Below, piece after piece: positions 17,253 through 38,842 of a DNA stretch of 64,000 nt (within the stretch, counting starts at the first letter, position 1; each line of letters begins with the position of its first letter). Both the position numbers and the translations under genes were made by a program. Origin of the DNA: an uncultured Candidatus Saccharibacteria bacterium (lineage in GTDB: Bacteria > Patescibacteriota > Minisyncoccia > Phycocordibacterales > PALSA-1337). Location: contig CAYWKB010000001.1 in assembly GCA_964459225.1 (NCBI GenBank), positions 354,777-418,776 of the forward strand, read 5' to 3'. The notes under the pieces were generated by a model, which ran no database searches, was not told the origin of the DNA, and saw only the letters and a program-made list of their open reading frames with translations.

Positions 17253-17302
17253 ATCAATAACTAAAGATTACAAAAGAGTTAAAATATGCTAATATTTTAC
17301 CT

Positions 17303-18322: not shown

Positions 18323-18323
18323 T

Positions 18324-19385
18324 ATGATTGTACCCAATAATAAAATACAATATAAAACAGATTACGATAATTACTCTGATTATAAGGCAATTATGATATC
18401 AACTGACAGAATGATATTTAATGAAAGAAGTGCTGTAAGAAAAAGAATGATTGAATACAGTAAATCATATAAAGAGCTACATATTATAATTTTTTCAAAA
18501 AAAACACTAAAAAATCCGTCAGAAATTAAGATTTCAGACAATTGCTATGTTTACTCCACAGATTCAATTACTAGATTTTCTTATATAAATAATGCATTTA
18601 AAATTGGTAAAAAAATACTTAAGAGCTTCGATATAAATGAAAAAGTACTAATTACTTGTCAGGATCCATTTGAAACTGGATTAGCGGGGCGTAAAATAGC
18701 CAGTTTAAGACAAAATACTCATTTATTATTGCAAATACATACAGATTTATTTAGTCCATATTTTACTAAACATTCAATATTAAATCGCATTAGACTTTCA
18801 ATAGCCAGAAATACTTTAAGAGATGCTCAAACTGTAAGGGTGGTTTCAAGAAAAATAGCTGACTCACTTGTTTTGAGGGGAATTCCTGCGGATGATATTG
18901 TGCTTAAACCTATTGAAATAGCTAATTATAGTAATGATTTGAATCCAAGTTTTAATTTAAGGGATAAGTATAAGGAATTTAAAAAAATAATTTTAATTGT
19001 AAGTAGATTAGAATCAGAAAAAAATATAGACATGGCGATTAGAGCATTTTCGATTGTAAATAAAACTTCAAAAGATACTGCACTTGTTATAGTCGGATCA
19101 GGTAGTAAAATGAATTCTTTGAAAAAGATGTCTAGGAAATTTGGCTTGGAAAATTGCGTAAAATTTGAAGGTTGGCAAAATGATACTTTTTCATATTATA
19201 AAGTAGCCGATATTGTACTTGTAACATCTTGGTATGAAGGATATGGAATGGTCCTTAAGGAAGCAGCACAATTAGGTAAAAAGATAATATCTACCGATGT
19301 TGGTATTGCACAAGATATAGGTGCAGAGATTGTGGATTGGAATGAAAAAGATATTTCAAGAGCATTACTAAATAATTTAAATTAA
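18324..19385 (+). CDS. Glycosyltransferase family 4
   Basis: LVTSWYEGYGMVLKEAAQLGKKIISTDVG. Confidence 0.7.
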   Translation: MIVPNNKIQYKTDYDNYSDYKAIMISTDRMIFNERSAVRKRMIEYSKSYKELHIIIFSKKTLKNPSEIKISDNCYVYSTDSITRFSYINNAFKIGKKILKSFDINEKVLITCQDPFETGLAGRKIASLRQNTHLLLQIHTDLFSPYFTKHSILNRIRLSIARNTLRDAQTVRVVSRKIADSLVLRGIPADDIVLKPIEIANYSNDLNPSFNLRDKYKEFKKIILIVSRLESEKNIDMAIRAFSIVNKTSKDTALVIVGSGSKMNSLKKMSRKFGLENCVKFEGWQNDTFSYYKVADIVLVTSWYEGYGMVLKEAAQLGKKIISTDVGIAQDIGAEIVDWNEKDISRALLNNLN

Positions 19386-20075
19386 ATGAATTCAGATATT
19401 ATTAAAAGATTTAATAAAGTCAAAGTCTCTAGAACCTTTCTTAATATATTAGAGATTTATAATTTTAGTAATAAAAAAGTATTAGATATTGGATGTGGTT
19501 ATGGTGAGTATTTGAAGCTTTTCGGTACAAATAGTCAAGGTATAACAACTACAGATGATGAGGTTCGATATGGTAGTGAAAATAATATAAATATAGTTAA
19601 AGGTAATATTGAGGAGATTAATAATATGATAGGTCTAGGTAAATTTGAAGCCATATGGGCAAATAATCTATTTGAACATCTATCATCACCACATGTTTTT
19701 TTAATAAACTTAAAATCAATATCAACGCCTGACACAAATTTGATACTGGGAGTACCTGTTGTACCTAAAATTGTAAATTTGATGAAAATATCTAAATTTA
19801 GAGGTGCACTTGCGTCAAATCATATAGGTTTTTATACAAAAGACACGTTAAAACTAACAGTTAAGTATGCGGGATGGAAAGTTATTGAGATAAGACCATT
19901 TATATTTAAGATAAAAATCCTAGATTACCTTGCATCATTTTTTGCTCCTCATTTATATATTGTTGCAAAAAATGATGCTTCATTCAGGTATCCTGAAAAG
20001 AAGCAGAAAGAATGGAGGGGTGAAAAAATGTACAGTAACTTATTTAAAATAACAGAAAATGAAACTATTAATTAA
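19386..20075 (+). CDS. Class I SAM-dependent methyltransferase
   Basis: Motif I VLDIGCGYGEY. 229 aa. Confidence 0.7.
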   Translation: MNSDIIKRFNKVKVSRTFLNILEIYNFSNKKVLDIGCGYGEYLKLFGTNSQGITTTDDEVRYGSENNINIVKGNIEEINNMIGLGKFEAIWANNLFEHLSSPHVFLINLKSISTPDTNLILGVPVVPKIVNLMKISKFRGALASNHIGFYTKDTLKLTVKYAGWKVIEIRPFIFKIKILDYLASFFAPHLYIVAKNDASFRYPEKKQKEWRGEKMYSNLFKITENETIN

Positions 20076-21531
20076 ATACATTATTTCAGGTGGTACTGCG
20101 GCTATTGTTGATTTATCGATTTTGCATTATTTGGATGTTAGAGGATTTCATCATATTGTAAGTGTAAATATAGCATTTTTAATTGCATTTATTGTTAGTT
20201 TTTCATTTCAAAAATACTGGACATTTTCGGATTCAAAAAGTTATGAAGTACATAAGCAATTAAGGGATTATTTTATAGTATCAGTTATAAATGTCTTTCT
20301 TAATAATTTGATTATACAGTTTATTATTAAAATAAATTTAGTATCTGAAATACCAATACTTAGGGAAATCGTATGGGCGCAAATTATATCGTCTGCAATT
20401 ATAGCCGTTGAGTCTTTTGTGATTTATAGATTTTTTATTTTCAAAAAATCAACTAACAATTTGAATAATGGTTCAAATAAAAAAGGTATTTTGATTATTA
20501 CACAAAAAGTTGATAAAGATGATTCAATATTAGGATTTTTCCATGATTGGATAATGGAATTCTCAAAACAATATAATAATGTCATAGTTATTTGTTTGCA
20601 AAAAGGAAATTATGATTTGCCTAAAAATGTCGAAATATTAAGTATGGAAAAGGATAAAAATCCTAATAAATTTAAGTATATTTATTTACTTAATAAATTT
20701 GCATTTGAAAATAGAAATAAATATGATTACGTATTTTGCCATATGTCACCACTCTATGTTATTTCTGGTTTTGTGATATGGAAGATATTGCATAAAAAAA
20801 TCTCAATGTGGTATGTTCATAGAAATGTTGATTTAAAACTTAAAATTGCTAACTTACTTTCTGATTATATTTTTTCTTCTACAAAAGAAGGCTACAGAAT
20901 AAATACTAAAAAAGTTAAATATCTTGGGCAAGCGATTTTGGTAAATAAATTTCCATATTTAAAACACAAAATCCTTGATAAAAATACTAATATCAATATA
21001 TTAACAGTGGGTAGAATCACAAAAATCAAAAATTTAGATTATCTCATTAATACAATTAAGATACTTAAAGATAAAAATTATAATGTAAATTTAAATATTA
21101 TTGGAGAAGCAAAAATATCAAGTGATATAGAGTATTATAATGAATTAAAAAATCAAATTTCAAAACTAGGTCTGAATAGCAATATTAATTTTATAGGTTC
21201 AGTTAAATATGATGAATTAGCACATTACTATAATATTAACGATATATTTGTTAATTTAGCGCCTAGTGGTGGTCAAGATAAGGCGGTACTTGAAGCTATG
21301 TCATCTGGTATTCCAACCTTTGTTGCTAATACTGGATTTAAGGACTTTTATGGTGAATTTGCCTCAGATATGATATTTGAGTTAAATAATGTTGTGAGTT
21401 TATCAGATAAAATTGTGCAATATATAGATCAAGATAATCAAATACAAATAACTGAAATTATAAATAAAAATATAATTCAAAAGGCAGATTTATCTATTTT
21501 GATAAGTAATATCAGTAATGAATTAAAATAG
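20059..21531 (+). CDS. GtrA-like 4-TM domain fused to a GT4 glycosyltransferase
   Basis: N-terminal ~130 aa has 4 TM segments with the GtrA pattern (GGTAAIVDL...FSFQKYWTF). The C-terminus is GT4 (GGQDKAVLEAMSSGIPTFV). Confidence 0.65.
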   Translation: MKLLIKYIISGGTAAIVDLSILHYLDVRGFHHIVSVNIAFLIAFIVSFSFQKYWTFSDSKSYEVHKQLRDYFIVSVINVFLNNLIIQFIIKINLVSEIPILREIVWAQIISSAIIAVESFVIYRFFIFKKSTNNLNNGSNKKGILIITQKVDKDDSILGFFHDWIMEFSKQYNNVIVICLQKGNYDLPKNVEILSMEKDKNPNKFKYIYLLNKFAFENRNKYDYVFCHMSPLYVISGFVIWKILHKKISMWYVHRNVDLKLKIANLLSDYIFSSTKEGYRINTKKVKYLGQAILVNKFPYLKHKILDKNTNINILTVGRITKIKNLDYLINTIKILKDKNYNVNLNIIGEAKISSDIEYYNELKNQISKLGLNSNINFIGSVKYDELAHYYNINDIFVNLAPSGGQDKAVLEAMSSGIPTFVANTGFKDFYGEFASDMIFELNNVVSLSDKIVQYIDQDNQIQITEIINKNIIQKADLSILISNISNELK

Positions 21532-21533
21532 GT

Positions 21534-22994
21534 ATGGATTACAAAAACAGTCATTTAAAATATTTATTATTAGTACCAGTAGTTATTTTATTGTTTTATA
21601 CATTTACTAATTTAACCGAAAGTCCTGCTACTTGGATGGATGAGGGTATTATTGTACAGACGGCAAGGAATTATTCTGTATCAGGTTTTTCTGGTTTAAG
21701 GGTCGATCCAGAAAATGTGGTTTCTGCTGGCTATGTTACAACAAGTTATCCAGTAACGATGCCAATTGCTACGGTTTTTAATATATTTGGAATATCTCTT
21801 TTTAATGCGAGAATGGTTATGGCTATTTTTATTCTGATTCTTGTATTTTTTGTTTATAAAAATAATAAAAAATATTTAGAAAATGATTACTATTTACTAG
21901 CATTATCACTAATATTATTGGTGTCATTTCCACCATTATATGGGCATGGCAAAAACGTTTTAGGTGAAGTTCCTGGCATGGCTCTACTGTTTATCTCAGT
22001 TTATCTTTTTGATAAACTTATTTCTAATCACGATGACAAGGATATTTCAAAATATAAACAATATTCACTATTATTCCTATCCTCATTATTTTTTGGATTA
22101 GTTTTTGTGACAAAGCCTATTTTTATTATTTTGATTCCCGCTATCTTTATTACATTTTTTATTAAAAATAGATCAAACTTATTAAGTTTATTTGATAGGA
22201 AAAATGTTTCGCTTTATGTCATGTCTTTGATTGCTTTTTTTATACCTGTGCTTTTTTGGATAAAATTTCAATTTCATGGGGAGGGACTTGCCTATATGCT
22301 ATCTATATATGTTAATCCACAAAGTAATAGTTTAGAAAGCAACATAATCATTAATATTAAAAGATTTTTTACTGAATCACAGCCAATATACACATTATTG
22401 TTAATGGTAATTTGGACAATAGCAATTATTAAAAATAAATTCAATAAAATTAAAATAGGTAGTACTCAATTATTTTTATATATATTTTCACTACTGATAC
22501 TTGTTGCATATATAAGGACAACTGGATATTACAGATACTTTTTTATTGCAGAATTCATCGCTTTAACTTTCTTTATTTCAAATCTCAAATGCCTATTTAA
22601 AAATAAGATAATTATTTATTTTATTGCGATACCACTTATCTTGTATCAAATTTATAATTTAAATTATTCGAGTTGGGTTTCAAAATCAATTGATAATTCA
22701 CAGAGTGAAGATTTACAATTATTACTTTCAAATATATCAGATAAAAATGAGATCTTTGTGTACCAAGCGCCAGAAATAGTGACATTTATTAAAGGTGAAA
22801 ACTATTCTCAATATTTGCAAATCACATCAAGTATCCAGGTTGGTAGCACAAGTTTAACTAGGCTGGCCGAAAAAAAGCCTGAACTAATAGTCACAAACAG
22901 TATGTATAATGATGTTGTGTACAAAATCGTCGGTGATGCATATGAGGGCTATGCAAGTATAGGAAAATATAGTTTTATAAGAAAAAAGCATTGA
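21534..22994 (+). CDS. GT-C fold polytopic membrane glycosyltransferase (ArnT/PMT_2-like, polyprenyl-phosphate-sugar dependent)
   Basis: ~11 predicted TM helices. The first extracytoplasmic loop carries WMDEGIIVQTARNY, a DE/Y motif characteristic of the ArnT/PMT_2 family. Confidence 0.55.
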   Translation: MDYKNSHLKYLLLVPVVILLFYTFTNLTESPATWMDEGIIVQTARNYSVSGFSGLRVDPENVVSAGYVTTSYPVTMPIATVFNIFGISLFNARMVMAIFILILVFFVYKNNKKYLENDYYLLALSLILLVSFPPLYGHGKNVLGEVPGMALLFISVYLFDKLISNHDDKDISKYKQYSLLFLSSLFFGLVFVTKPIFIILIPAIFITFFIKNRSNLLSLFDRKNVSLYVMSLIAFFIPVLFWIKFQFHGEGLAYMLSIYVNPQSNSLESNIIINIKRFFTESQPIYTLLLMVIWTIAIIKNKFNKIKIGSTQLFLYIFSLLILVAYIRTTGYYRYFFIAEFIALTFFISNLKCLFKNKIIIYFIAIPLILYQIYNLNYSSWVSKSIDNSQSEDLQLLLSNISDKNEIFVYQAPEIVTFIKGENYSQYLQITSSIQVGSTSLTRLAEKKPELIVTNSMYNDVVYKIVGDAYEGYASIGKYSFIRKKH

Positions 22995-23017
22995 TTTTCT
23001 GGTATTTCTGTTAGAAT

Positions 23018-24610
23018 GTGTGTATACATAAAGATATGAAAACGGTTGTAGTGATACCAACATATAATGAAAGAGATACTGTAGAATCAATAATTCATAG
23101 AGTATTTGAAACTGTGCCTAATATAAATGTTTTAATCGTAGACGATAATTCTCCCGATAAGACATCAGAAGTGGTGGAGGCATTAATGAACAAATTTCCA
23201 AATTTATCTATTTTGAAGCGTAAAGGTAAAGAGGGTTTAGGTAAAGCGTATGTACATGCTTTTAAAGTTATATTATCTGACCATAACATCGAGAGGATAA
23301 TAACAATGGATGCAGATCAAAGTCATGATCCAAGTTATATTCCATCAATGCTTAAGTTATCAAAAGATTACGATTTGGTTATCGGATCTAGATATGTTAA
23401 AGGTGGTGATATAGTTGGTTGGGAAAAAAGTAGGAAATTTTTGAGTTATTTTGGAAATTTATATTCAAGATTAATTACGAGAATCAAGGTTAAAGATTTA
23501 ACTGCTGGATACAATGTCATATCTACTGATTTTTTAAGATTAATTAATTTGGATAATATCGGTAGTGCAGGGTATTCATTTACAATTGAATTTAAAAATT
23601 GTTTTTCTAGAAGCGGTGCTAGAATATATGAATTTCCAATAATTTTTAGAAATAGAGTTGTTGGAGAGTCAAAGATATCTAAAAAAATAATATATGAAGG
23701 ATTACTGATACCTTGGAGATTAATCTCTAAGGGAATATATGTAAATCTAACATGTATAGCCTGTGACAATAGTAAACATATCTTTTTTTCAAGAAAGAAT
23801 AGTTTTACTCTATATAAATGTGTTGAGTGTAGTAAAATTGTGATAAACCCAATCCCTAAAAGTTTTGATAACGTATATAATCAAGAATATTTTTCTGGTG
23901 CAAAAAACGGTTTTGGTTATGTAAATTATGATAAAGATAAAGAGGCTATGAAAAACGTTTTTCATAAATATCTAGATAAAATAGAGCAATACATAATCAA
24001 TAATAAAAATAAAAAAATACTAGATATAGGTGCTGCTACTGGATTTTTCATGAAAATAGCAATTAGCAAAGGCTTTAAAATTAAAGGCATTGAGTATTCA
24101 AAGGATGCTGCTGAATCAGGTAAAAAGAACGGACTAAATATTAGTGTTGGCACAATCGAAGATTATGATAGTAAAAAAGAAAAATTTGATGTTGTAACTA
24201 TGTTTGATGTTATTGAACATATTCCTAATCCAAAATTTAGTATTAAGGCAGTTTCAAATTTACTTGTTAAAAATGGACTATTACTTATTAATACTCCAGA
24301 CTCAGGAAGCTTTTTTGCTAAGCTTATGGGAAGCAAATGGCATTTGATTGTACCACCTGAACATATACATTATTTTAATAAAAAATCTCTCATCACATTG
24401 CTTGAATCAAACGGTTTTGAAATTGTAGAATACACAAAGATAGGTAAAAAATTTACTCTGGAATACGTCTCATCAATGCTCGCAAGATGGACTAATGTTG
24501 CTGTGTTTGATAGTACAACTAATATGTTGAAAAAAAGCTTTATTGGACAACTATCAATTCCCATAAATTTGAGAGATAATATGTTTGTCATGGCAAGAAA
24601 AATAAAATGA
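23018..24610 (+). CDS. Polyprenyl-phosphate sugar synthase (Dpm1/GtrB-like GT2) fused to a Cys4 zinc ribbon and a class I SAM methyltransferase
   Basis: N-terminus VVVIPTYNERDTVESII...LIVDDNSPDKT...GKEGLGKAYVHAF is Dpm1/GtrB-like. Residues ~250-285 are CIACDN...CVECS. The C-terminus has MT motif I ILDIGAATGFF and FDVVTMFDVIEHI. The start may be the Met at 23036. Confidence 0.75.
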   Translation: MCIHKDMKTVVVIPTYNERDTVESIIHRVFETVPNINVLIVDDNSPDKTSEVVEALMNKFPNLSILKRKGKEGLGKAYVHAFKVILSDHNIERIITMDADQSHDPSYIPSMLKLSKDYDLVIGSRYVKGGDIVGWEKSRKFLSYFGNLYSRLITRIKVKDLTAGYNVISTDFLRLINLDNIGSAGYSFTIEFKNCFSRSGARIYEFPIIFRNRVVGESKISKKIIYEGLLIPWRLISKGIYVNLTCIACDNSKHIFFSRKNSFTLYKCVECSKIVINPIPKSFDNVYNQEYFSGAKNGFGYVNYDKDKEAMKNVFHKYLDKIEQYIINNKNKKILDIGAATGFFMKIAISKGFKIKGIEYSKDAAESGKKNGLNISVGTIEDYDSKKEKFDVVTMFDVIEHIPNPKFSIKAVSNLLVKNGLLLINTPDSGSFFAKLMGSKWHLIVPPEHIHYFNKKSLITLLESNGFEIVEYTKIGKKFTLEYVSSMLARWTNVAVFDSTTNMLKKSFIGQLSIPINLRDNMFVMARKIK

Positions 24611-25749
24611 AAATAATATTTTTTTCAGCAGATTATATTCCTACTGGTGGTGGTATTGCCACATACGTTCATGAGCTTGTTCATAATACCTATAGCCACC
24701 CTTTGGTTACCGATACCAAATTAATTGTCTTTGGTAATAAAAATCCAAGGAAAGAACAATTTGAAAATGGTCTTGGTAAATTATATATAAAGACATATTC
24801 AAGTATTAATTTTTTATATACTGGTATTATGGTTTTTTTCTATTTTATTAATAATTTTAAATATGATATTTTTCATTCACTTAATTTATTTCCATTAGGA
24901 TTTTGGACAGTTTTTTGGGGTAAGATTTTCAATAAAAAAACTATTATAACTTTTTACGGAACTGATGCATGTGATACAAAGGCAAGTACAAAAACATTAT
25001 TTTTGAAAAAATGGTCAATAGTTAATTCTTCATTACCTTTGACGATTAGTGACTTTACTAAAACTCAGGTTGAAAAAAGGTATAATTTAAATCCTAATTT
25101 AATTAAATTCATTCATCCAATTGTTCCTGAAATAATGCTTAAAAATAATAAAGATAATTTTGATATAGATAAAATAAAGAGCGAAAATAATATTGAAAAA
25201 GATGATTTTGTAATACTAACCGTTTCAAGACTGGTTAAAAGGAAAGGTACAGATGATTTAATAAAGGCTATAGGCATCTTGAATGACAATAATATAAAAC
25301 TATTAATAATAGGTGATGGAAAGGAAAGGGAAAACTTAGAGAAGTTGATAATAGATAACAACCTCAGCAAAAACGTTAGATTATTAGGCAAGGTTAAGGA
25401 CATAACACCCTATTATCATTTAGCCGATGTATTTGCGCTTACTTCATATATTATCGAAAATGATGGTGATTTTGAGGGTTTTGGACTTGTTATGACCGAG
25501 GCCCAGTCATACGGCTTACCGGTAATAGGTACAAAAAGTGGTGGTATACCTGAGACATTCAATCATATGCAGACTGGAATATTGTTACCTGAAAGGGATA
25601 TTAAAGCCATTGCAAATGCAATTAAACAAATAAAAGATGATGATGTATTACAAAAGACAATGTCAGATAATACCAAAGATTTTTTGATTAATAATTTTGG
25701 CTATAAAAATTCAATTAATAAATATATAGAGCTTTGTAAGTCTCTATGA
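24607..25749 (+). CDS. Glycosyltransferase family 4
   Basis: EGFGLVMTEAQSYGLPVIGTKSGGIPE. Confidence 0.8.
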   Translation: MKIIFFSADYIPTGGGIATYVHELVHNTYSHPLVTDTKLIVFGNKNPRKEQFENGLGKLYIKTYSSINFLYTGIMVFFYFINNFKYDIFHSLNLFPLGFWTVFWGKIFNKKTIITFYGTDACDTKASTKTLFLKKWSIVNSSLPLTISDFTKTQVEKRYNLNPNLIKFIHPIVPEIMLKNNKDNFDIDKIKSENNIEKDDFVILTVSRLVKRKGTDDLIKAIGILNDNNIKLLIIGDGKERENLEKLIIDNNLSKNVRLLGKVKDITPYYHLADVFALTSYIIENDGDFEGFGLVMTEAQSYGLPVIGTKSGGIPETFNHMQTGILLPERDIKAIANAIKQIKDDDVLQKTMSDNTKDFLINNFGYKNSINKYIELCKSL

Positions 25750-25763
25750 TATAGTAAATAAAT

Positions 25764-26750
25764 ATGAAAGTCTCTGTAATATTACCAAATGGTAAAAGTG
25801 ATTATCTGGCAAATACAGTATTGGACGGTTTGCTTGAACTGTCGACAATTGATAAGGATTTGGTTTTTAAGATCACTACAAATTACCCTAATCCTTTTAA
25901 TATTAAAGAATATGAGTTGAGTAATTCTGAATTTACGGATTTTGCGAATGATGCAGATCTTATTATTTTATGTTGGGGGAAAAATAGTACTAATTATGAT
26001 TTAGCAAATAATATAAATAAATGGAATAAAACTATTTTTATTGATGGTTCCGAATTAGGTAAAAATAATAGATTTGATAAAAAGATAATACAAGAAGTTT
26101 TAGATGGTACATATAAGGGTATTGGTGCTATAGATCAGGATATGTTAATTAAATGTAAGGCATATTATAGAAGAGAAAAGCCGTATATAAATGGCATTAT
26201 TCCTTTTCCATTTGGTATTGAAAATAGATATAGGAAATTTTATAAAAAGGACATAAAAAGAGATATTGATTTTACTTGTATATTTGGACAAGATGAATAT
26301 CCGATTATGAGAAGGCAAGTAAAAGAATATTTAGAAAAGTTTTGTAAGAAAAATAATTTGATTTGTAAGACAAAAAGAACAAGTGATTTTAATTTTGATG
26401 ATAATACTAAGATTGCTGGCAGAGATGAGTTTTATGAAATATTATCAAGAACTAAAGTCGGTATATCTATAGGAGGTGGTGGTTTTGATACGGCTAGATT
26501 TTGGGAGATATTGGGTAGTGGCGCTATACTCATGACTGAAAAAATAGATATAGATAATACTAATTTAAAATATAAAAGAATAAAAGAATTTAGTGATTTT
26601 GAAGATTTTAAGATAAAATTAGACCAAATGGCCAATTATTTAAAGAATGAATACAATAATGATATTGAAATATTGGATGATGAGTATATTGATGTGATTT
26701 CTAAGCATTCTACTATTGCGAGAATAAAAGATATCTTAAATCATAAATAA
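25764..26750 (+). CDS. Hypothetical protein, possible GT-B-type glycosyltransferase
   Basis: The only support is a weak C-terminal GGGGFDTARFWEILGSGAI motif that resembles the GT1/GT4 sugar-donor loop. Confidence 0.3.
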   Translation: MKVSVILPNGKSDYLANTVLDGLLELSTIDKDLVFKITTNYPNPFNIKEYELSNSEFTDFANDADLIILCWGKNSTNYDLANNINKWNKTIFIDGSELGKNNRFDKKIIQEVLDGTYKGIGAIDQDMLIKCKAYYRREKPYINGIIPFPFGIENRYRKFYKKDIKRDIDFTCIFGQDEYPIMRRQVKEYLEKFCKKNNLICKTKRTSDFNFDDNTKIAGRDEFYEILSRTKVGISIGGGGFDTARFWEILGSGAILMTEKIDIDNTNLKYKRIKEFSDFEDFKIKLDQMANYLKNEYNNDIEILDDEYIDVISKHSTIARIKDILNHK

Positions 26751-27655
26751 TGAATAATACTAAATGTATAATATGTAATGCAATAACCAATCCTTTTATG
26801 ATAAAGGATAACTACAGTCTGTTTAAGTGCAGTGAATGTGCTTTGGTATTTATGAATCCATTACCAGAGCAAAAGTTTTTAAATAATGAAGTTTATTCTT
26901 TTGAGTCTGGTTATCAATCAAATAAAAACTCAGATTTATCTAAAGTTGTTCCATCAAAAAAGACAATAGATATAGTTAACTTTTTAATTAAAGAAAATAG
27001 ATATAAAAATATTTTAGATATTGGTTGTTCAAGTGGGGAGTTTATACACTATGCAAAATCAAAGGGTTTTAATGTTGCTGGGGTAGAATTAAACAAAAGG
27101 ACAGCCCAAATTGCTCAAAATAATGGTCTAAGAGTGTTTAATGGCCTATTATCTGATGCGAAATATCAGAATGGTGAATTCGATGTGATATTTTTGGGTG
27201 ATGTAATAGAACATGTTTTATCACCAAGTGATTTAATCAATGAATGCAAAAGAGTTTTAAGTAGTAACGGTATTATAATAGTTTCAACCCCTAATCTTGA
27301 TTGCTTGTGGTCAAATATAACTTTACTATTTTACAGATATTTTAAAATACCTTGGTCATCTGTTACACCCCCGTACCATACGTTTCAGTTTTCAATAAAT
27401 AATATTGATTTATTTTTTAATAATCTCGGTTTTAACAAAATATCTGAATGGTTTTATAAACCACCTAGACTTATGTACGAATTAGGTTCATTGCATTTAT
27501 TAAAAAAATATAAAAAGTCTAAAAATATACTTGATTTATTATTTATGATTTTTTCTTTTGCTTTATATTCTGTAACATACTATATCTGTTATTTATTAAA
27601 TATTTTTCTAAAAAAGGATTTTTCACATTTAGTGATCTATAAAAAAAATGATTAA
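26750..27655 (+). CDS. Zinc-ribbon + class I SAM methyltransferase (paralog of the MT domain at 23018..24610), C-terminal TM segment
   Basis: CIICNA...FKCSECAL Cys4 ribbon, then ILDIGCSSGEF and FLGDVIEHV. The same architecture as the C-terminal half of the preceding fusion. Confidence 0.7.
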   Translation: MNNTKCIICNAITNPFMIKDNYSLFKCSECALVFMNPLPEQKFLNNEVYSFESGYQSNKNSDLSKVVPSKKTIDIVNFLIKENRYKNILDIGCSSGEFIHYAKSKGFNVAGVELNKRTAQIAQNNGLRVFNGLLSDAKYQNGEFDVIFLGDVIEHVLSPSDLINECKRVLSSNGIIIVSTPNLDCLWSNITLLFYRYFKIPWSSVTPPYHTFQFSINNIDLFFNNLGFNKISEWFYKPPRLMYELGSLHLLKKYKKSKNILDLLFMIFSFALYSVTYYICYLLNIFLKKDFSHLVIYKKND

Positions 27656-28667
27656 AGTATATCTATCTCCAAAAATAGAAGGATTAAAATATATTGATTT
27701 AATTAATCCTAATTTAAATATTAAAAATAATAAAACTTTTTTCGATGATTTTAATGTATTCAATGATTTGAGTGAAAATGTAGTAGAAATAGTTTCTGAT
27801 ATAGATCAAGCTCAATATATTATGATTCCATACAATATATTGCATATAGATAATTTAAATAATTATCTTAATTCAATTAGAGATATTTCAAAATCAAAAA
27901 AGATTATTGCATTTATTATAGGTGATTCTGATATCGATATTAAAATTGATAATTCAATAATATTTAGAATGTCTTGTTATGGTATAAAAATAAGAGAAAA
28001 TGAAATTATTATTCCTGCATATGCAAATGATTTATCAAAATATGATGCAATTAAGTTTCGAGTTAAAAATGAGATGCCAGTTATAAGCTTTTGTGGCTGG
28101 GCAGGTGTACAGGGATTTTATTCAAAAATAAAATATTTCATTAAAAATTATTTAATATTAAAAGGTCCGTACAAGCAGGGAATTTATTTTAGAAGGAAAG
28201 CAATAAAAATATTAAATAAATCAAAATTAGTTAAGACAAATTTTATAATCAGGGATTCATACAGCGCAAATGCTAAAACAATTAAAATAGATCCAAAGAT
28301 TGCAAGGAAAGAATATATTGATAATATTGTTAATTCTGATTTTGTACTTTGCCCTAAAGGTGACGGAAACTTTTCTGTTAGATTTTATGAAGTATTAAGC
28401 CTCGGTAGAATACCGATACTCATAGATACTGATATGATATTGCCTTTAAATAAGGATATTGATTATAGTAAATTTATTTTAAGAATTAATTATAAAGATA
28501 TTCATAATATTGATAAAATAGTCTCTGATTTCTATAATAAAATCACTGAAGATGAATGGATTAAAATGCAATCGATTGCAAGACAGGAATTCGTAAATCA
28601 TCTAAATATTGTATCTTTTTTTAAATTTATTTTGACTAAGGAAAACATTGAAAAATATATAAAATAA
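27648..28667 (+). CDS. Exostosin-like (GT47-like) glycosyltransferase
   Basis: C-terminal FVLCPKGDGNFSVRFYEVLSLGRIPILIDTDMILPL matches the exostosin motif F.LCP.GD..S.R..DA...GCIPVI. Confidence 0.55.
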   Translation: MIKVYLSPKIEGLKYIDLINPNLNIKNNKTFFDDFNVFNDLSENVVEIVSDIDQAQYIMIPYNILHIDNLNNYLNSIRDISKSKKIIAFIIGDSDIDIKIDNSIIFRMSCYGIKIRENEIIIPAYANDLSKYDAIKFRVKNEMPVISFCGWAGVQGFYSKIKYFIKNYLILKGPYKQGIYFRRKAIKILNKSKLVKTNFIIRDSYSANAKTIKIDPKIARKEYIDNIVNSDFVLCPKGDGNFSVRFYEVLSLGRIPILIDTDMILPLNKDIDYSKFILRINYKDIHNIDKIVSDFYNKITEDEWIKMQSIARQEFVNHLNIVSFFKFILTKENIEKYIK

Positions 28668-28671
28668 AAAA

Positions 28672-29787
28672 ATGAAAATTGCATATATTGAAAATATAAG
28701 ACTACCAACGGAAAAGGCGCATGGAATACAAATAATGAAAATGTGTGAGGCTTTTGCTTTAAATGGTCATGAAATAACCCTTATAGTTCCAGATAAACAC
28801 AATATACATAGTATAGATCCTTTTAAATACTATTCGATTTCAAATAAATTTAATATTATAAAAGTGTGGGTACCAAATACAATATTTTTGGGAAAGATTG
28901 GCTATTGGATACAAACTTTGTATTTCTCACAGGTCGCGTCTTTTTATATTCGTAAAATTAAATCAGATATAGTTTATTCAAGAGATGAATTGATTTTATT
29001 AAACTATATACTAATATTTAAAAACATTGTCTGGGAGGCTCATAGAGGTAGTTGGAATGTTGCATCTAAAATATTATCAAGATTTTCTAGAAAAATAATT
29101 GTAATCAGTAACGGTTTGAAGGATTTTTATTTAGATAAAAATAATAAATTATCACAAAAGATATTAGTATCACCTGATGCTGTTGATTTAGAAATGTTTA
29201 ATATTGTTATGAGTAAGGAAGAATGCAGAGATAAATTAAAATTAGATAAAGAAAAGAAAATCATACTATATTCAGGTCATTTATATGAATGGAAGGGTGC
29301 ATATCTGTTGGCGGAGGCAAGTAAATATTTCGATAATAATACAATAGCTGTGTTTGTGGGTGGAACACAATCAGACATAATTAAATATAAGGAAAAGTAT
29401 GAAAGCGACAAATGTATATTTATAGGTAAAAAAGATTATTCAGATATACCATACTATTTAAAAGCAGCAGACATTTTGGTATTACCAAATACACTAAAGG
29501 ATAATATGGGAAGTAAATACACATCACCGCTTAAATTATTTGAATACATGGCAAGTGGAACTTCCATCTTGGCTTCAGATGTTCCGGCGATAATGGAAGT
29601 TTTGAATGAAAATAATTCATTTATATTTAAATCTGATAACGTAAATGATTTAAATAATAAGATAAACTACATTTTAAATAACTTAAACAGTGAAATTGTA
29701 AATGATAGAGTTATAAAAGCTCAAAATGATGTAAAACAATATTCATGGGATAATCGTGCATCAAATATTATCAACTCAATTTTTTAG
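28672..29787 (+). CDS. Glycosyltransferase family 4
   Basis: SPLKLFEYMASGTSILASDVPAIMEV. Confidence 0.75.
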   Translation: MKIAYIENIRLPTEKAHGIQIMKMCEAFALNGHEITLIVPDKHNIHSIDPFKYYSISNKFNIIKVWVPNTIFLGKIGYWIQTLYFSQVASFYIRKIKSDIVYSRDELILLNYILIFKNIVWEAHRGSWNVASKILSRFSRKIIVISNGLKDFYLDKNNKLSQKILVSPDAVDLEMFNIVMSKEECRDKLKLDKEKKIILYSGHLYEWKGAYLLAEASKYFDNNTIAVFVGGTQSDIIKYKEKYESDKCIFIGKKDYSDIPYYLKAADILVLPNTLKDNMGSKYTSPLKLFEYMASGTSILASDVPAIMEVLNENNSFIFKSDNVNDLNNKINYILNNLNSEIVNDRVIKAQNDVKQYSWDNRASNIINSIF

Positions 29788-31397: not shown

Positions 31398-32033
31398 ATG
31401 TTAAGTAAAATAACAAGGAGAAACCTAGATATATTCCTTAAAAAGCACGCTTCAAATGAGCGTATTGTTGACATTGGTTCAGGTAACTCTTCTTATAATA
31501 GATTTTTCCCTAATAGAATATCGGTAGATATTGATCCAAATCGTAAACCAGATATTTTGGGCGATGCTCATGATTTGCCTTTTAAGGATGGAGAAGTTGA
31601 GGCAATACTCTCGACAGATGTCTTTGAACATTTAAAAGATCCAGTCAAGGCAGTTTCAGAAATGAAAAGAGTTTTAAAAAAGGGAGGTAGAGTCGTATTT
31701 GCTACTAGATTTATTTTTCCTATACATGATTCACCTAATGATTTTTGGAGATTTACAAAATACGGTTTAAGGGAATTATTTAAAGATTTTGAGATTTTAG
31801 AATTGGAAGAGGAGACAGTAAATTTTGAAACAATTTCTATTTTACTTCAGCGTATTGGATATCAAACAAAATTATTTTGTAATAAGCCAACAAAATTTAT
31901 TATTTTTATGATAGCAAAAATATTAGCAAAGATTAATTGGATAATAAATGAAGAATACGGTGATATAGCAAGGAAAAATAAAGAACACGGAATGCTAGCA
32001 AGTGGCTATTATATGATCGCAAAAAAGAAATGA
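31398..32033 (+). CDS. Class I SAM-dependent methyltransferase
   Basis: IVDIGSGNSSY and LSTDVFEHL. Confidence 0.7.
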   Translation: MLSKITRRNLDIFLKKHASNERIVDIGSGNSSYNRFFPNRISVDIDPNRKPDILGDAHDLPFKDGEVEAILSTDVFEHLKDPVKAVSEMKRVLKKGGRVVFATRFIFPIHDSPNDFWRFTKYGLRELFKDFEILELEEETVNFETISILLQRIGYQTKLFCNKPTKFIIFMIAKILAKINWIINEEYGDIARKNKEHGMLASGYYMIAKKK

Positions 32034-33160
32034 AGGTACTTTTAATCTCGATGACAAATAACATACAAAGTGGTGGGGGTAATCTCACTCACGAATTGTG
32101 CATGTTTTTAAAAGGCAAAGTGGATTTTACTCTTCTTTTACCTCATGATGAAAAGAGATATGAATACACCTCATATCCCGTTGAATACATACTACCTTCA
32201 TATATTTTTGATACCAAAACGCCTAAAATATTTGAATATCTTTTTTTTAACTATAAAACAGACGCTGATATTGTGCATTCAGTATTTGAATTTCCATATG
32301 CAATAGTTGCAAATAGAATTTCTAAGAAAAATAAAATACCTCTTATTATAGGCTTGGCTGGAACTTATGCTGTAAAGCCATTATTTACATTCCCCGATAG
32401 TTTATTCTTAAAGAGAGCATATAATCATGCAAAGAGAATGATTTCTATTAGTAAATTTACTGCTGATATGGTAATGAAATATTCAAAGACTAAAACACCT
32501 ATTGATATAATACATTGTGCTGTTAACTTTGGAAGGTTTTCTGCTAATTACGAGATTGAGGATATTAGAAAAAAATATTCTAATAAAAAATTATTTATGA
32601 CTGTAGGTGCTATAAAGCCTAGAAAAGGTCACGATATAGTACTTGAAGCTCTTTCTATCTTAAAAAAAGAAAGAAACGATTTCCACTATATAATTACTGG
32701 TAATAATGAAAAAAGAGATGGATATTTTAATAAATTAGATGAAATAATTGAGAGGGGAAATCTAAAAAATAATGTAACTTTTGCCGGATCAATAAGTGAT
32801 GAGGATATGCCAAGATATTTCAATGCGATTGATGTATATATCCATACCCCAGTCATGGTCAATTGGAATTTTGAAGGTTTCGGTATTGTATACTTAGAGG
32901 CTGGTTCTGCAAGAAAAGCGGTTATTGCATCAAATTCAGGTGGAACATTAGATGCTGTTATGGATGGTAAAACAGGTATTGTGGTTCCCGAAGGTGATAT
33001 TGTGTCTACTGCAAATGCTATTAGGAAATTAATTGATGATGAAGAATTAAGAACAAAATTCGGAAATGCTGGTTATGAATATGCCAAAGAGCATACTTGG
33101 GAGAATATTGGTATGAAAATTATAGAACAATATAAACATCTATTAGATAAAAATGCCTAA
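32030..33160 (+). CDS. Glycosyltransferase family 4
   Basis: EGFGIVYLEAGSARKAVIASNSGG. Confidence 0.8.
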   Translation: MKVLLISMTNNIQSGGGNLTHELCMFLKGKVDFTLLLPHDEKRYEYTSYPVEYILPSYIFDTKTPKIFEYLFFNYKTDADIVHSVFEFPYAIVANRISKKNKIPLIIGLAGTYAVKPLFTFPDSLFLKRAYNHAKRMISISKFTADMVMKYSKTKTPIDIIHCAVNFGRFSANYEIEDIRKKYSNKKLFMTVGAIKPRKGHDIVLEALSILKKERNDFHYIITGNNEKRDGYFNKLDEIIERGNLKNNVTFAGSISDEDMPRYFNAIDVYIHTPVMVNWNFEGFGIVYLEAGSARKAVIASNSGGTLDAVMDGKTGIVVPEGDIVSTANAIRKLIDDEELRTKFGNAGYEYAKEHTWENIGMKIIEQYKHLLDKNA

Positions 33161-34391
33161 AAGAAAAATAATTATTATAAATGATGATTTCCCTCCATAT
33201 AGTTCTGGTGGAGCGGCAATTATCGCGCATAATCAAGCGCTTGGATTGAAAGAAAAAGGTTTTGAAGTAATTGTCCTGACTACGGTTAATGATATAAAAA
33301 ATGAGGGTATATTTAATGAAAATGGTATCAGGATAATAAAAATATTTTATAGATATAATCTCAGATTTAGATCATATATATCAATATATAACAGTTTTTT
33401 ATCTAAAAAATTAAAATTAATTCTGATTCAAGAAAAACCTGAAATAGTACATTTTCATAATATTCATTCAAACTTTTCATATCATAGTATTCGTGTGGCA
33501 AGTAAGATTTGTAAAAAAGTGTTTATTACAGTACATGACTCTATGCCGTTTCACTATAGTAAACTTTACCCAAAAGACAAATTCAATCTATCAAAAGATA
33601 ATTATAAAGTATCCGCACTAAGACAAATTAAAGATTTTAAATTCAGATATAATCCATTTAGAAATATATTAATTAAATATTATCTTAAATTCCCGAATAA
33701 AATTATTGCAGTTAGCGATGCTTTAAAAGATGCTTTAGAAGTAAATGGAATAAAAAATGTTGTAACTATTCATAATGGAATTGATATAAGTAAATGGATA
33801 TTAAATAAAAATAAGGTAGATGAATTTAAAAATAAATATGACTTAAACAATAAAAAGGTACTCATGTTTTGTGGTAGGCTAAGTAGAGCAAAGGGTGGGG
33901 AGGTTGTACTCAATATGCTGAAGGAGCTGATAAAAACAATACCAAATATTAGATTGCTGGTAGTTGGTGAAATGGACAGTGAAGCACAGAACCTATCCAA
34001 TATAGCAACTAGGTCAGGTATAAGAGACTATATTATCTTTACCGGTAGTATGAATAGGGAAGAAATAGTAAATGCATATGGCACAAGTGATTTGGTGGTG
34101 GTTCCGTCATTATGTTTTGATTGGTTCCCAACGGTTAATCTTGAGGCAATGGCTTCTGGAATACCTGTTATTGCTACGTGTTTTGGCGGTAGTAAAGAAA
34201 TTATATCTGACGGTGTAAACGGTTATATTATTAATCCATATGATTTAACAGATACACTCAATAGAGTTAGTAAATTATTAAATGATAATTTACTAAGGTC
34301 AAAAATGTCTAACGATATAGTTTCACTATTAATAAAAGAATACGATATAAATAAATATTTACAGAATACTATTATCTGCTATAATCAATAA
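33153..34391 (+). CDS. Glycosyltransferase family 4
   Basis: FPTVNLEAMASGIPVIATCFGGSKE. Confidence 0.8.
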   Translation: MPKRKIIIINDDFPPYSSGGAAIIAHNQALGLKEKGFEVIVLTTVNDIKNEGIFNENGIRIIKIFYRYNLRFRSYISIYNSFLSKKLKLILIQEKPEIVHFHNIHSNFSYHSIRVASKICKKVFITVHDSMPFHYSKLYPKDKFNLSKDNYKVSALRQIKDFKFRYNPFRNILIKYYLKFPNKIIAVSDALKDALEVNGIKNVVTIHNGIDISKWILNKNKVDEFKNKYDLNNKKVLMFCGRLSRAKGGEVVLNMLKELIKTIPNIRLLVVGEMDSEAQNLSNIATRSGIRDYIIFTGSMNREEIVNAYGTSDLVVVPSLCFDWFPTVNLEAMASGIPVIATCFGGSKEIISDGVNGYIINPYDLTDTLNRVSKLLNDNLLRSKMSNDIVSLLIKEYDINKYLQNTIICYNQ

Positions 34392-34392
34392 A

Positions 34393-35394
34393 ATGAAGAC
34401 TGTATTAGTCACTGGGGTTGCGGGATTATTAGGCTCACATTTTTCTGAATATTTAGTAGATAAGGGTTATTTTGTTGTTGGTATTGATAATTTATCTGGA
34501 GGTTATTTATCAAATGTCCATAAACATATTATTGAGAATGAGAGATTTTATAAAATTGACCTAACTAATGCAAAAGAATTAGATAAAATTTTTAAAAAAT
34601 ATAAAATAGATTACGTATATCATTTTGCTGCTTATGCAGCTGAGGGTTTATCACCTTTTATCAGAAGATATAATTATAATAATAATCTAATTTCTTCGAT
34701 TAATGTTATAAATAATTGTATTAAATATAATGTCAAAAAAATGATTTTTGCTTCATCCATGGCTGTATATGGATTTGGAAACCCTCCATTTACCGAAAAT
34801 CAAATTCCAAATCCAGTTGATCCATATGGAGTTGCAAAATATGCGGTAGAAATGGATTTGAAGCAGGCTTGTGAACAATTCGGATTAAAATATACAATTG
34901 TCAGACCACATAATGTTATTGGTGCAAGGCAAAATATTTGGGATAAATATAGGAATGTAATAGGAATATGGATAAGAAAAGTTATTAATGGTGAGAAGAT
35001 TTCTGTTTTTGGTACAGGTAAACAAAAGAGAGCATTTTCTGATATTAGATACTATATGGATCCATTTAAAAAACTTATGACGATGGGTGATGGACAGATA
35101 TTTAATATTGGTGCAGATAAGGATTATAGAATAATTGATGCTGCAAAGATACTTGTTAAAGTCGCAAAAGAGTTTGGGTATAATGCGGAGATTGAATATC
35201 TAGAAAAAAGACATGAAGTAGATGTAGCGTACTGTAATCATGATAAGGCTAAAAAATACCTGAAATTTTATGATGGTACAGATTTAGAATCAACAGTAAG
35301 GGAGATGTTTAGTTGGGCTATAAAACAACCTGTAAGAAAGACTAAAAAAATGGATTATGAAATAGAAAAAAATATGTATAGCTACTGGAAATAA
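34393..35394 (+). CDS. NAD-dependent nucleotide-sugar epimerase/dehydratase (extended SDR)
   Basis: VLVTGVAGLLGSH Rossmann motif and the YGVAK catalytic YxxxK. Confidence 0.8.
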   Translation: MKTVLVTGVAGLLGSHFSEYLVDKGYFVVGIDNLSGGYLSNVHKHIIENERFYKIDLTNAKELDKIFKKYKIDYVYHFAAYAAEGLSPFIRRYNYNNNLISSINVINNCIKYNVKKMIFASSMAVYGFGNPPFTENQIPNPVDPYGVAKYAVEMDLKQACEQFGLKYTIVRPHNVIGARQNIWDKYRNVIGIWIRKVINGEKISVFGTGKQKRAFSDIRYYMDPFKKLMTMGDGQIFNIGADKDYRIIDAAKILVKVAKEFGYNAEIEYLEKRHEVDVAYCNHDKAKKYLKFYDGTDLESTVREMFSWAIKQPVRKTKKMDYEIEKNMYSYWK

Positions 35395-36126
35395 ATGGAT
35401 TTTTTAAATACAAAATTTTATGACGATGCAAGTAAAAATTATTCTCGAAATAGATATAGTTTAGTTAGTGTTAGTTATATTAACTTTTTCTTTAAGAAAA
35501 GATTGAAAATTGTTGTTAACCAGATTTCAAATATTATTTCAAATAATTATCATAACCAAGATAATTTAACATTGCTTGAGAGTGGTTGTGCTGATGGAGT
35601 AGTGATAAATAAAATTATTAAAGAATTTCCGAATAGATTTAGTGTTTATGTCGGTACAGACATATCCCAAGGGATGATTGATGAGGCGATTAAACAAAAT
35701 AAGTTCGAAAATGTAAGATATTATCTTAAGGGTAAAGAAGACGGTGATCTTAAGTATGATATAGTTCTTGCAATTGGGTATTTGAGCCCTGGAATATTTG
35801 ATCAGGAATTTGGGTATTTATTAAGTAATTTAAAAAAAGACGGATTTTTAATAATTTCTCTCGCATCAAGAAATTCTATATATACTAAATTAAAATTAAA
35901 TAATAAGGAGTACATAAGAGATTACTGGTCACATAATGAATATTATAAATACTTATCCAAGAGATTTGATATAGTTAGCATATCTACATGCGGATTATTT
36001 ATACCAAAATTATGGAAATTTCCTTATATAGCTCGTATATTTCAACCAGTAATTGAAGACATTTTAGATATATTCATACCTAATTTATACCATGAAAAGA
36101 TATTTGTACTTAAAATTAGAAATTGA
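35395..36126 (+). CDS. Class I SAM-dependent methyltransferase
   Basis: LLESGCADGVV motif I. Confidence 0.6.
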   Translation: MDFLNTKFYDDASKNYSRNRYSLVSVSYINFFFKKRLKIVVNQISNIISNNYHNQDNLTLLESGCADGVVINKIIKEFPNRFSVYVGTDISQGMIDEAIKQNKFENVRYYLKGKEDGDLKYDIVLAIGYLSPGIFDQEFGYLLSNLKKDGFLIISLASRNSIYTKLKLNNKEYIRDYWSHNEYYKYLSKRFDIVSISTCGLFIPKLWKFPYIARIFQPVIEDILDIFIPNLYHEKIFVLKIRN

Positions 36127-37083
36127 TTTATAAATTTTATGTATTTTTTTAAAAATATTATATAAAAAAGGTAGATTAAATTTAAATAATAAAAATAATT
36201 TTTGAGATATTCTTGTATTGATACCAAATACTTTTTTATATATTAATTCATCCGCAATTTCATTTTGAAATATAGATTGAGGATGAACTAGAGGAAAATC
36301 AATTTCCTCTAGTTTGAAATTTCCAAAATTACCCTTGATTCCATTAGAGTGAGTGGAATTAACACCAAATCCGATGTTCTTTATCATGTTTCGGTTCGGA
36401 ACAATTGCATACGCACCCTCTTTCATACAGGTATATGTCCATGCGACATCCCATGTACTTAATTCGCCCCTATACATTCTTTCAAAGAGATAGTTGAAAT
36501 AATCTATATTATATTTGTCCTTTAGTACTTTATTAATTATCCCCTCATTCTTTATTAATGGCCAGTCAGACATCTTGACATCATATTTTTTCCAAGCTCT
36601 TTTCCATGTTGCCCACCCCCATATCTGTGCTATTCTTGAAAAATAATAACTATTATCAACTTTATTTTTTTCGTCTTGCATATTTAGACCACCAATATGC
36701 ATAATTTCTGTCGAATCTTTGTATTTTATAAGAAGTTCTTCACAAAAGTAGAAAAAAGAATTACTGGGAACACAGTCATCCTCGAGTATTATTGCTTTTT
36801 CGTTATTAGCAAAGACCCAGTCTATGCCACTTGATAATCGATTTTTACATCCAAGATTTACATCTGAGTAATTTTTACGGACTATACATGGCCAGTCTAT
36901 ATTTTTTAATATCTCTCTGGTTTCATCACATAATTGGCTCTCGGATTTATCTCTAGGTCCATCAGCAATAATAAATAATGATTTTGGTTTAACTTTTCTA
37001 ATGCATTCAAATACTGTAGAAGTTTCTTTTGGTCTATTAAATATAAATAATGCAACAGTTGTATCTAATTGTTTATTTTCCAT
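36085..37083 (-). CDS. Putative GT-A fold glycosyltransferase (HlpA-like / GT2-like)
   Basis: ALFIFNRP...LFIIADGPRD and ILEDDCVP (DxD-like). The fold assignment is tentative. Confidence 0.45.
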   Translation of the reverse strand: MENKQLDTTVALFIFNRPKETSTVFECIRKVKPKSLFIIADGPRDKSESQLCDETREILKNIDWPCIVRKNYSDVNLGCKNRLSSGIDWVFANNEKAIILEDDCVPSNSFFYFCEELLIKYKDSTEIMHIGGLNMQDEKNKVDNSYYFSRIAQIWGWATWKRAWKKYDVKMSDWPLIKNEGIINKVLKDKYNIDYFNYLFERMYRGELSTWDVAWTYTCMKEGAYAIVPNRNMIKNIGFGVNSTHSNGIKGNFGNFKLEEIDFPLVHPQSIFQNEIADELIYKKVFGINTRISQKLFLLFKFNLPFLYNIFKKIHKIYKSISNFKYKYLFMV

Positions 37084-38024: not shown

Positions 38025-38026
38025 AA

Positions 38027-38842
38027 TTATATTTTAATCCAGTTTTGCGGTATTAAATCAACGGTATTAATATTTTCATCCAAAAACCATTTTTTTGGTG
38101 AAATTACAATCTTATTTTTCTTATCGTTTAACCATGCTGACCACCAACTAAATGTACTATTTGATATGATGTTATTTTCACAATTACTCATTATTATTAA
38201 TTCTTCACAATCACTAATCTTTCTATCATCATTCACGAAGAATATTTTATTTTTAATATTAATATTATTTTTACACCACTCTATATCATCAGAAAATATA
38301 TAGGCATCTGGTAAATCACATATGCTGTTAATATAATCGATTGCATTATTATAATAATCTAGATCGCATACACCATGAAATAGATTAGTCTTTTTTTCGG
38401 TTATGTAATCACCTCTACGGATATGAATTGATACTGAAGATCTAGTTTTTATCTGTTCAATAATTTTATTTGCAGCATTAGTCATTTTACCTCTTATTGT
38501 TAATTCGTCTCTAATAGACTGTGCGATTTCTTCAAAATATCTTTCGCTTTGCCAGTAACCATTTATTATACTGTTATCACTTATTTCTTTATATTTATAA
38601 TCGAATGCAAAATTATGTTCTTTAAATTCTATTAAATTAAAAACTTTTATAGTTACTTCGGCATCTATGTTAAATGCGTCAAGCATGTATTTTCTCTTAT
38701 TTTGATTTCTATAAAAACTAATATCTAACAACAATTTTGTTCCTTGTTTATTAGCTAAATACCTTCCAAATGAGTATTGAAATAGTTGATTACCAAGACC
38801 TCCAGATAATTTACTCACAATCATATTTACTGATATTATCAT
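38027..38842 (-). CDS. Alpha-1,2-fucosyltransferase (GT11)
   Basis: GT11 motifs LSGGLGNQLFQYSFG and VSIHIRRGDY. Confidence 0.85.
   Translation of the reverse strand: MIISVNMIVSKLSGGLGNQLFQYSFGRYLANKQGTKLLLDISFYRNQNKRKYMLDAFNIDAEVTIKVFNLIEFKEHNFAFDYKYKEISDNSIINGYWQSERYFEEIAQSIRDELTIRGKMTNAANKIIEQIKTRSSVSIHIRRGDYITEKKTNLFHGVCDLDYYNNAIDYINSICDLPDAYIFSDDIEWCKNNINIKNKIFFVNDDRKISDCEELIIMSNCENNIISNSTFSWWSAWLNDKKNKIVISPKKWFLDENINTVDLIPQNWIKI

Follow-up and report, generated by a model that had tools for sequence, protein, structure and literature searches.

Does a polysaccharide locus of a bacterium really encode an enzyme of the exostosin type, and what could such an enzyme do there? The question arises from a 64,000-nucleotide stretch of DNA of an uncultured Candidatus Saccharibacteria bacterium (assembly GCA_964459225.1, contig CAYWKB010000001.1, positions 354,777 to 418,776; hereafter the window), in which the open reading frame (ORF) 27648–28667 (+ strand) had been read as that of an exostosin-like enzyme of glycosyltransferase family 47 (GT47) in an earlier note. 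The ORF starts with ATG and encodes 339 aa; this start codon is backed by homologs whose alignment with the protein begins at residue 1 (consensus MxKVYIG). The protein is basic (pI 9.15) and shows no transmembrane segment, with a maximum 19-residue hydropathy of 1.39. We consider it likely that it is a soluble cytoplasmic two-domain glycosyltransferase of the GT-B type and exostosin fold, belonging to a family widespread in the candidate phyla radiation (CPR) and adding one sugar during the assembly of a surface glycan.

The motif FVLCPKGDGNFSVRFYEVLSLGRIPILIDTDMILPL, to which the earlier note had drawn attention in this ORF, was found at residues 232–267. In a hmmscan search against Pfam the protein passed the gathering cutoff of the profile Exostosin_GT47 (PF03016) with 47.0 bits versus a cutoff of 33.4 (E=2.9e-12), and with this significant hidden Markov model (HMM) match the exostosin-like assignment holds. 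The same profile was matched by 76 of the 76 aligned family members, with a best E-value of 7.7e-17; these 76 sequences form the alignment on which all conservation counts given here are based. Furthermore, a profile built from the family found EXT1 (E=1.4e-5), EXTL3 (1.3e-4) and EXT2 (3e-3) in a hmmsearch of the PDB sequences, and hhalign aligned the family to residues 89–435 of EXT1 with a probability of 93%, the aligned region being target residues 219–319 only. The protein also exceeded the gathering cutoff of a second profile, RXYLT1_C (PF24785), with 30.3 bits versus 27 (target residues 184–261, profile positions 36–108 of 187), and 74/76 family members matched it at E≤0.01. Since this match and the exostosin core motif share residues, it does not count as independent evidence. 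A search of NCBIfam with the protein gave no match.

The fold was examined in an AlphaFold2 model computed with the 76-sequence alignment, which consists of two Rossmann-like halves and reached a predicted local distance difference test score (pLDDT) of 92.9 and a predicted template modelling score (pTM) of 0.91. When this model was compared with the PDB by Foldseek, the top 16 matches were all EXT1, EXT2 or EXTL3 (E-values from 1e-12 to 2e-9). The next family followed at 7e-6 and A075L, a chlorovirus enzyme, at 5.6e-5; no plant GT47 structure was among the PDB matches of the model. The GT-B fold of the target is most similar to the characterised GT47 catalytic modules, at an identity to the EXT proteins of 12–17%. 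As the alignment extends over more residues than the C-terminal domain contains, both domains of the target are exostosin-like. The best viral structural match (BFVD M4QPL1, 281 aa, Synechococcus phage S-SKS1, ‘Exostosin GT47 domain-containing’, Foldseek E=3.2e-11) indicates that transferases of the exostosin fold occur in phages too.

We then compared the residues of the putative active site with those of EXT1. In the cryo-EM structure of EXT1-EXT2, the GT47 domain of EXT1 binds uridine diphosphate (UDP) through R280, R346 and E349 together with Y319 and Y324, the G339–F345 loop is the probable reader of the donor sugar, and D162/D164 is proposed as the base; the reaction is metal-independent, and activity was nearly abolished in the R346A and D162N/D164N variants (PMC9675754). 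The EXT1 sequence used for our alignments agreed with the paper in its length of 746 aa and in 11 numbered residues. Three independent alignments (phmmer, hmmsearch with the family profile and hhalign) paired K237-G-D-G-N-F-S243 of the target with R338-G-R-R-L-G-S344 of EXT1, and in all three R245 corresponded to R346 and E248 to E349. G238, N241, R245 and E248 are invariant (76/76 sequences). Of the donor-site residues of GT47, the equivalents of R346 and E349 are conserved in the family, and that of R280 can be assigned by motif order only. Across the 76 sequences, which share 39–57% identity, 17 positions are invariant and 36 nearly invariant, which points to selection on an active site. 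The invariant residues include D93, K140, R182, R202, R245 and E248. Conserved charges in the N-terminal domain are D93, R138 and K140 (76/76 each), D128 (75/76) and E119 (73/76). D93 lies just past the strand 85–90 of the model, within a G-D-S-D turn, and would be the most plausible catalytic base, with E119 and D128 as alternatives. The sugar-reading loop is acidic to neutral in the target (GDGNFS) and basic (GRRLGSF) in EXT1, which transfers glucuronic acid (GlcA); this argues, weakly, against a uronic-acid donor. The donor sugar could not be deduced from the genes of the locus: its two short-chain dehydrogenase/reductase (SDR) genes are only GalE-like and GDP-fucose-synthase-like, respectively, with all NCBIfam matches below the curated cutoffs.

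Judged by these residues, the protein is probably an active glycosyltransferase of exostosin (GT47-like) fold and, by analogy, most likely a soluble, metal-independent, inverting GT-B transferase. An inverting reaction would be expected because all characterised relatives invert, namely EXT1 as GlcA transferase, RXYLT1/TMEM5 and A075L. In the mechanism that we propose, the C-terminal domain would bind a nucleotide sugar, probably a UDP-sugar. The nucleotide diphosphate would be held by R245 and E248, and probably R182, which would also stabilise the leaving group with no need for a metal, and the G238-D-G-N-F-S243 loop would read the sugar. In the N-terminal domain an invariant acid, D93 being the best candidate, would deprotonate the hydroxyl of the acceptor and thereby allow a single-displacement, inverting transfer. 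The enzyme would be co-expressed with translationally coupled methyltransferase and GT4 genes and would add one sugar in the stepwise assembly of a heavily O-methylated heteroglycan at the cytoplasmic face of the membrane, presumably on a polyprenyl-phosphate carrier. The product might be exported by the ABC (ATP-binding cassette) exporter encoded in the locus, or by a Wzx-type flippase in some related loci, and outside the membrane GT-C or Wzy_C-type enzymes could attach the glycan to a surface acceptor.

Several results weigh against this reading. The match to PF03016 is partial, since it pairs target residues 216–293 with profile positions 211–291 of 293 and does not reach full-model coverage; sequence similarity to GT47 as a whole is limited to the C-terminal 80–100 residues. 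F148-x-G150 and the invariant R182 may correspond to F266-K-G268 and R280 of EXT1, respectively, a pairing that follows from motif order only. With hhalign no alignment of the N-terminal domain to EXT1 was found. A Smith-Waterman alignment of this domain (KVYLSP/KVYVYP, SDIDQAQ/SDPSQAC) had a z-score of 2.7 with the best shuffle scoring higher; it is not significant and was rejected, and residues 66–68, which it pairs with D162/D164 of EXT1, vary across the family. For these two reasons we do not claim equivalents of D162/D164. With regard to glycan assembly, no initiating phosphoglycosyl transferase, whether of Bac_transf or of MraY/WecA type, came to light in the scan of window ORFs of 100 aa or more, despite about 20 glycosyltransferase genes, and the lipid-carrier model is unanchored for this reason.

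Most of these points would equally fit an active glycosyltransferase outside CAZy GT47, which would form a GT-B family of its own and share with the exostosins only the C-terminal nucleotide-binding motif. Besides the 80 of 293 profile positions covered in Pfam, the restriction of the hhalign match to residues 219–319 and the N-terminal domain with its non-significant alignment and non-conserved D162/D164 positions, the passing of the RXYLT1_C cutoff by the target, as by nearly all members, speaks for such a family. So does the history of A075L, which was assigned to GT47 earlier by the same Pfam match and has since been moved to the new family GT114 (PMC11571054); a PF03016 match is, by this precedent, insufficient for membership in CAZy GT47. 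We regard a separate family as possible, but on the doubtful side. The label ‘GT47-like’ is justified for the exostosin-fold enzyme that we favor, as it is a member of PF03016 by Pfam's rule and its fold is nearest to GT47. The label does not amount to strict membership in CAZy GT47, because the sequence match is partial and the acceptor-side acid is not mapped.

Among the nearest structures are EXT2 and EXTL3; their GT47 domains apparently have no activity or no donor pocket (PMC9675754, PMC9178029), and this, together with a D162/D164 pair that is not recognisably conserved, would be compatible with a dead pseudo-glycosyltransferase scaffold. However, R245 and E248 are invariant in the target family whereas EXT2 lacks the equivalent of R346 (PMC9675754), the sugar-reading loop as well as D93, E119 and D128 are invariant or nearly so in 76 divergent sequences, and the target is a stand-alone single-module protein that is retained in very small genomes and recurs in loci rich in glycosyltransferases; we consider a dead scaffold very unlikely. 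Little credence is also given to a GT-B-fold enzyme that moves a group other than a sugar, such as a transferase of the polysaccharide pyruvyl or the polyol-phosphate (TagF-like) type. Enzymes of these types are built on the GT-B scaffold and are encoded in glycan loci, and RXYLT1, whose C-terminal model matches the target, uses ribitol phosphate as acceptor (PMC4924997); for the target itself, polysaccharide pyruvyl transferase (PF04230) and TagF-like enzymes gave neither an HMM match nor the closest fold.

We also determined how widely the protein is distributed. Assemblies in NCBI and Logan contain the exact protein, the longest contig measuring 523 kb, and hundreds of full-length homologs share about 39–57% identity with it. 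Relatives were found in at least 202 species-representative genomes in a scan of one genome per species; almost all are Patescibacteria, comprising Saccharibacteria-labelled metagenome-assembled genomes, Peregrinibacteria/Peribacteria, Paceibacterota and Vogel-, Taylor- and Zambryskibacteria. When 1.84 billion cluster representatives were searched exhaustively with an HMM, 1,048 clusters (at 50% identity) were obtained at E≤1e-30, 2,249 at 1e-10 and 5,916 at 1e-3. The earlier note had described GT47-like enzymes as uncommon in bacteria and essentially uncharacterised there: for Patescibacteria the first part is an overstatement in view of these numbers, while the second agrees with our finding no paper on a biochemically characterised bacterial member within the limited literature collection searched. 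In NCBI and UniRef the names ‘exostosin family protein’ and ‘Exostosin GT47 domain-containing protein’ have already been given to a few homologs, and the exostosin annotation is therefore not new. The enolase encoded in the window is 81–86% identical to enolases of named Patescibacteria, Parcubacteria and Pacebacteria, and the flanks of the locus hold housekeeping genes (NusB, RNase III, SMC, RNase R, S16, TrmD, S1, iPGM, enolase and RNase J). Together with the relatives across Patescibacteria, this identifies the target as a gene native to the chromosome of an ultrasmall CPR bacterium, neither contamination nor a mobile element. Rfam and tRNA scans of the window found nothing. A recent horizontal gain from a eukaryote or a giant virus, or a contamination, which might be suspected as GT47 is best known from plants and animals and as the best viral structural match is a cyanophage exostosin-domain protein (E=3e-11), is hardly credible in view of the long contigs on which the gene stands amid CPR housekeeping genes, its GC content, which matches that of the surrounding locus, its 8-nt overlap with a neighbour gene, the homologs in similar loci of all those species and the remoteness of the eukaryotic GT47 proteins, to which identity is as low as stated above and the Pfam match covers the last 80 positions only.

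The positions of the gene, its domains and the surrounding features are collected in Table 1. The upstream methyltransferase gene shares 8 nt with the start of the target (ATGATTAA), an overlap that indicates translational coupling of the two genes, and the downstream GT4 gene begins 4 nt past the stop codon; overlap and gap place the target within a tightly packed co-directional block.

Table 1. Features of the window around the GT47-like gene (window coordinates)
Feature	Position	Strand	Basis and remarks
GT47-like GT-B glycosyltransferase gene	27648..28667	+	ATG start, 339 aa, exact ORF
N-terminal Rossmann-like (acceptor-side) domain, ~aa 1-141	27648..28070	+	Model secondary structure; relation to EXT1 by fold only
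C-terminal Rossmann-like (nucleotide-sugar donor) domain, ~aa 142-339	28071..28664	+	Model, invariant residues
Hallmark motif, aa 232-267	28341..28448	+	phmmer/hmmsearch/hhalign alignments to EXT1
S-adenosylmethionine (SAM)-dependent methyltransferase, upstream neighbour	26750..27655	+	Pfam Methyltransf_23/11
GT4 glycosyltransferase, downstream neighbour	28672..29787	+	Pfam Glycos_transf_1, 85 bits
Unannotated 328-aa ORF	25764..26750	+	No Pfam match above cutoff; weak Glyco_trans_1_2 match
Co-directional 13-gene block holding the target	16107..29787	+	ORF coordinates, gaps -17 to +50 nt; Pfam
Gtr-like module	20059..24610	+	Pfam; GtrA-GT4 fusion 20059-21531, PMT_2 GT-C 21534-22994, GT2-methyltransferase fusion 23018-24610
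GMC-family flavin oxidoreductase, mid-locus	29771-31342	-	Opposite strand; Pfam
Rest of the biosynthetic part	31398..45125		SAM and FkbM methyltransferases, 3 GT4, 2 GT2, GT11, 2 SDRs; Pfam
Candidate export/transfer end	45195..50898		Pfam; NCBIfam sub-threshold
GT2	45195-46211	-	Pfam
Fused ABC exporter (TMD-NBD, transmembrane and nucleotide-binding domains), HepA/MsbA/PglK type	46220-48007	-	Pfam; NCBIfam sub-threshold
Wzy_C (O-antigen ligase/polymerase-like) protein with tetratricopeptide (TPR) repeats	48643-50898	+	Pfam; NCBIfam sub-threshold
TraG/VirD4/HerA-like P-loop ATPase	14342-16102	+	TrwB_AAD_bind, T4SS-DNA_transf, DUF87 matches
VTT/DedA and PAP2 phosphatase domain fusion	51665-52951	+	Just past the glycan locus, beyond a response-regulator gene
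Protein O-mannosyltransferase architecture PMT + PMT_4TMC	55866-57293	+	112 and 153 bits; adjoins the enolase gene

That the gene lies in a bacterial glycan locus, as had been stated before, is borne out by about 30 glycan genes which span roughly 16.1 to 50.9 kb of the window (a locus of about 35 kb) and comprise GT4, GT2, GT11 and GT-C glycosyltransferases, methyltransferases, epimerases, an ABC exporter and a Wzy_C protein. According to Pfam there are 10 GT4-type genes (one of them GtrA-fused), GT2 genes, a GT11 and a PMT_2 GT-C. The 13-gene block consists of six stand-alone GT4 genes, the GtrA-GT4 fusion, the PMT_2 GT-C, the GT2-methyltransferase fusion, two SAM methyltransferases, an unannotated GT-B-like ORF and the GT47-like gene, and its arrangement recurs in independent assemblies. 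The GT2 part of the fusion gene resembles polyprenyl-phosphate-hexose synthases (sub-threshold NCBIfam matches to AglJ, PpgS, ArnC and dolichyl-P-hexose transferase). In the C-terminal half of the unannotated ORF we observed a faint likeness to the donor-binding motif of the target (GGGGF-DTARFWE versus GDGNF-SVRFYE; BLASTP E=0.003 in a single comparison). On this sequence likeness the ORF probably encodes another unclassified GT-B transferase; as the likeness is faint and at the level of the motif only, we do not claim it as a paralog of the target.

Among the glycosyltransferases, at least nine SAM/FkbM methyltransferase genes or domains were identified by Pfam between 19386 and 42878 of the window, a density that suggests an unusually heavily methylated glycan. 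The GT11 in the second half of the biosynthetic part belongs to the fucosyltransferase family (Pfam). The C-terminal domain of the GMC oxidoreductase resembles pyranose oxidase, well below the NCBIfam cutoff, and the enzyme may oxidise a sugar. The P-loop ATPase gene immediately precedes the first GT4 gene of the locus. Beyond the other end, the VTT/DedA-PAP2 fusion could, by analogy, be a module for the recycling of polyprenyl-(pyro)phosphate. GC content is lower in the glycan locus (0.245–0.29 between 16000 and 44000) than in the housekeeping flanks (0.30–0.35); a low GC content is usual in loci for surface polysaccharides.

We also investigated whether this neighbourhood recurs. For this purpose ORFs were called and clustered in 77 related loci, and families encoded up to five genes away from the GT47-like gene were counted. 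GT4 glycosyltransferases were present in 67/77 loci and SAM methyltransferases in 42, directly adjoining the GT47-like gene in 27 of them. A small GtrB/DPM1-like GT2 was found in 28 loci, PMT_2 GT-C proteins in 21(+11), GtrA in 16, SDR epimerases in 14 and a Wzx-like flippase in 10, while the family of the unannotated ORF directly upstream of the methyltransferase gene, which has no Pfam match, occurred in 19. Since the same families recur across the 77 loci, the GT47-like family is a regular part of CPR loci that join cytoplasmic GT-B and GT-A steps with polyprenyl-phosphate-sugar (Gtr-like) machinery. A further family of about 347 aa without a Pfam match (representative: ORF 9 of locus L044) was seen in 23 of the loci and is absent from the window.

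The annotation of the target as such is ordinary, because the domain match was already public and nothing about it is contrary to what is expected in a bacterial polysaccharide locus. What the analysis adds is a firm annotation, backed by structure, of a single gene in a very large CPR glycan locus on a contig of about 0.5 Mb, and the definition of a family of about 1,000 clusters at 50% identity, with clear invariants that are open to mutation. Glycosylation in Saccharibacteria was termed “unexplored” in a 2024 preprint (PMC11623550), and the surface glycans of CPR bacteria probably matter for their episymbiotic life on other bacteria. Compared with the large membrane-bound eukaryotic enzymes, a soluble family member of 339 aa would be a convenient model of the GT47 fold. 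It is tempting, though rather unlikely in our view, to regard the Patescibacteria family as a minimal soluble prokaryotic lineage of the true GT47 fold and possibly as the bacterial stock of the eukaryotic Golgi GT47 enzymes. If so, it would be closer in structure to the animal exostosins than any other solved family, and a small cytosolic member could become the first easily crystallisable active GT47-type enzyme, from which catalytic base and donor recognition could be learned.

Among known systems, human EXT1 (PDB 7ZAY, 7SCH, 7UQY) is a type II Golgi membrane protein of about 740 aa that is fused to a GT64 module and acts in a heterodimer, whereas the target is soluble and consists of a single module. 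The N-terminal domains of the two have no detectable sequence similarity, and D162/D164 of EXT1 are without a conserved equivalent in the target family. The GT4 enzymes that surround the target in its locus belong to a retaining family with a motif of the E-x7-E type; in contrast to them, the target does not match the profile Glycos_transf_1 even at E≤10. Plant GT47 enzymes, which are Golgi type II membrane proteins and generally match the Pfam profile over its whole length, attach single sugars to cell-wall glycans or elongate these glycans. These enzymes, for example the xyloglucan galactosyltransferase MUR3 and the xylan synthase IRX10, share PF03016 with the target, and the plant members of the family are inverting (PMC3797821). 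RXYLT1/TMEM5 is an exostosin-like, inverting ribitol-5-phosphate beta1,4-xylosyltransferase that uses UDP-xylose as donor (PMC4924997); the RXYLT1_C match in the target is confined to the stretch given above, and RXYLT1, unlike the soluble target, is a Golgi type II membrane protein. A075L of chlorovirus PBCV-1 (GT114; PDB 8ASA, 8AVQ, 8Q8I) is an inverting beta-xylosyltransferase with an Asp base and many bacterial homologs (PMC11571054). Like the target it is a small, soluble, cytosolic GT-B enzyme with a PF03016 match, but in sequence as well as in structure the target family is much nearer to the EXT proteins than to A075L.

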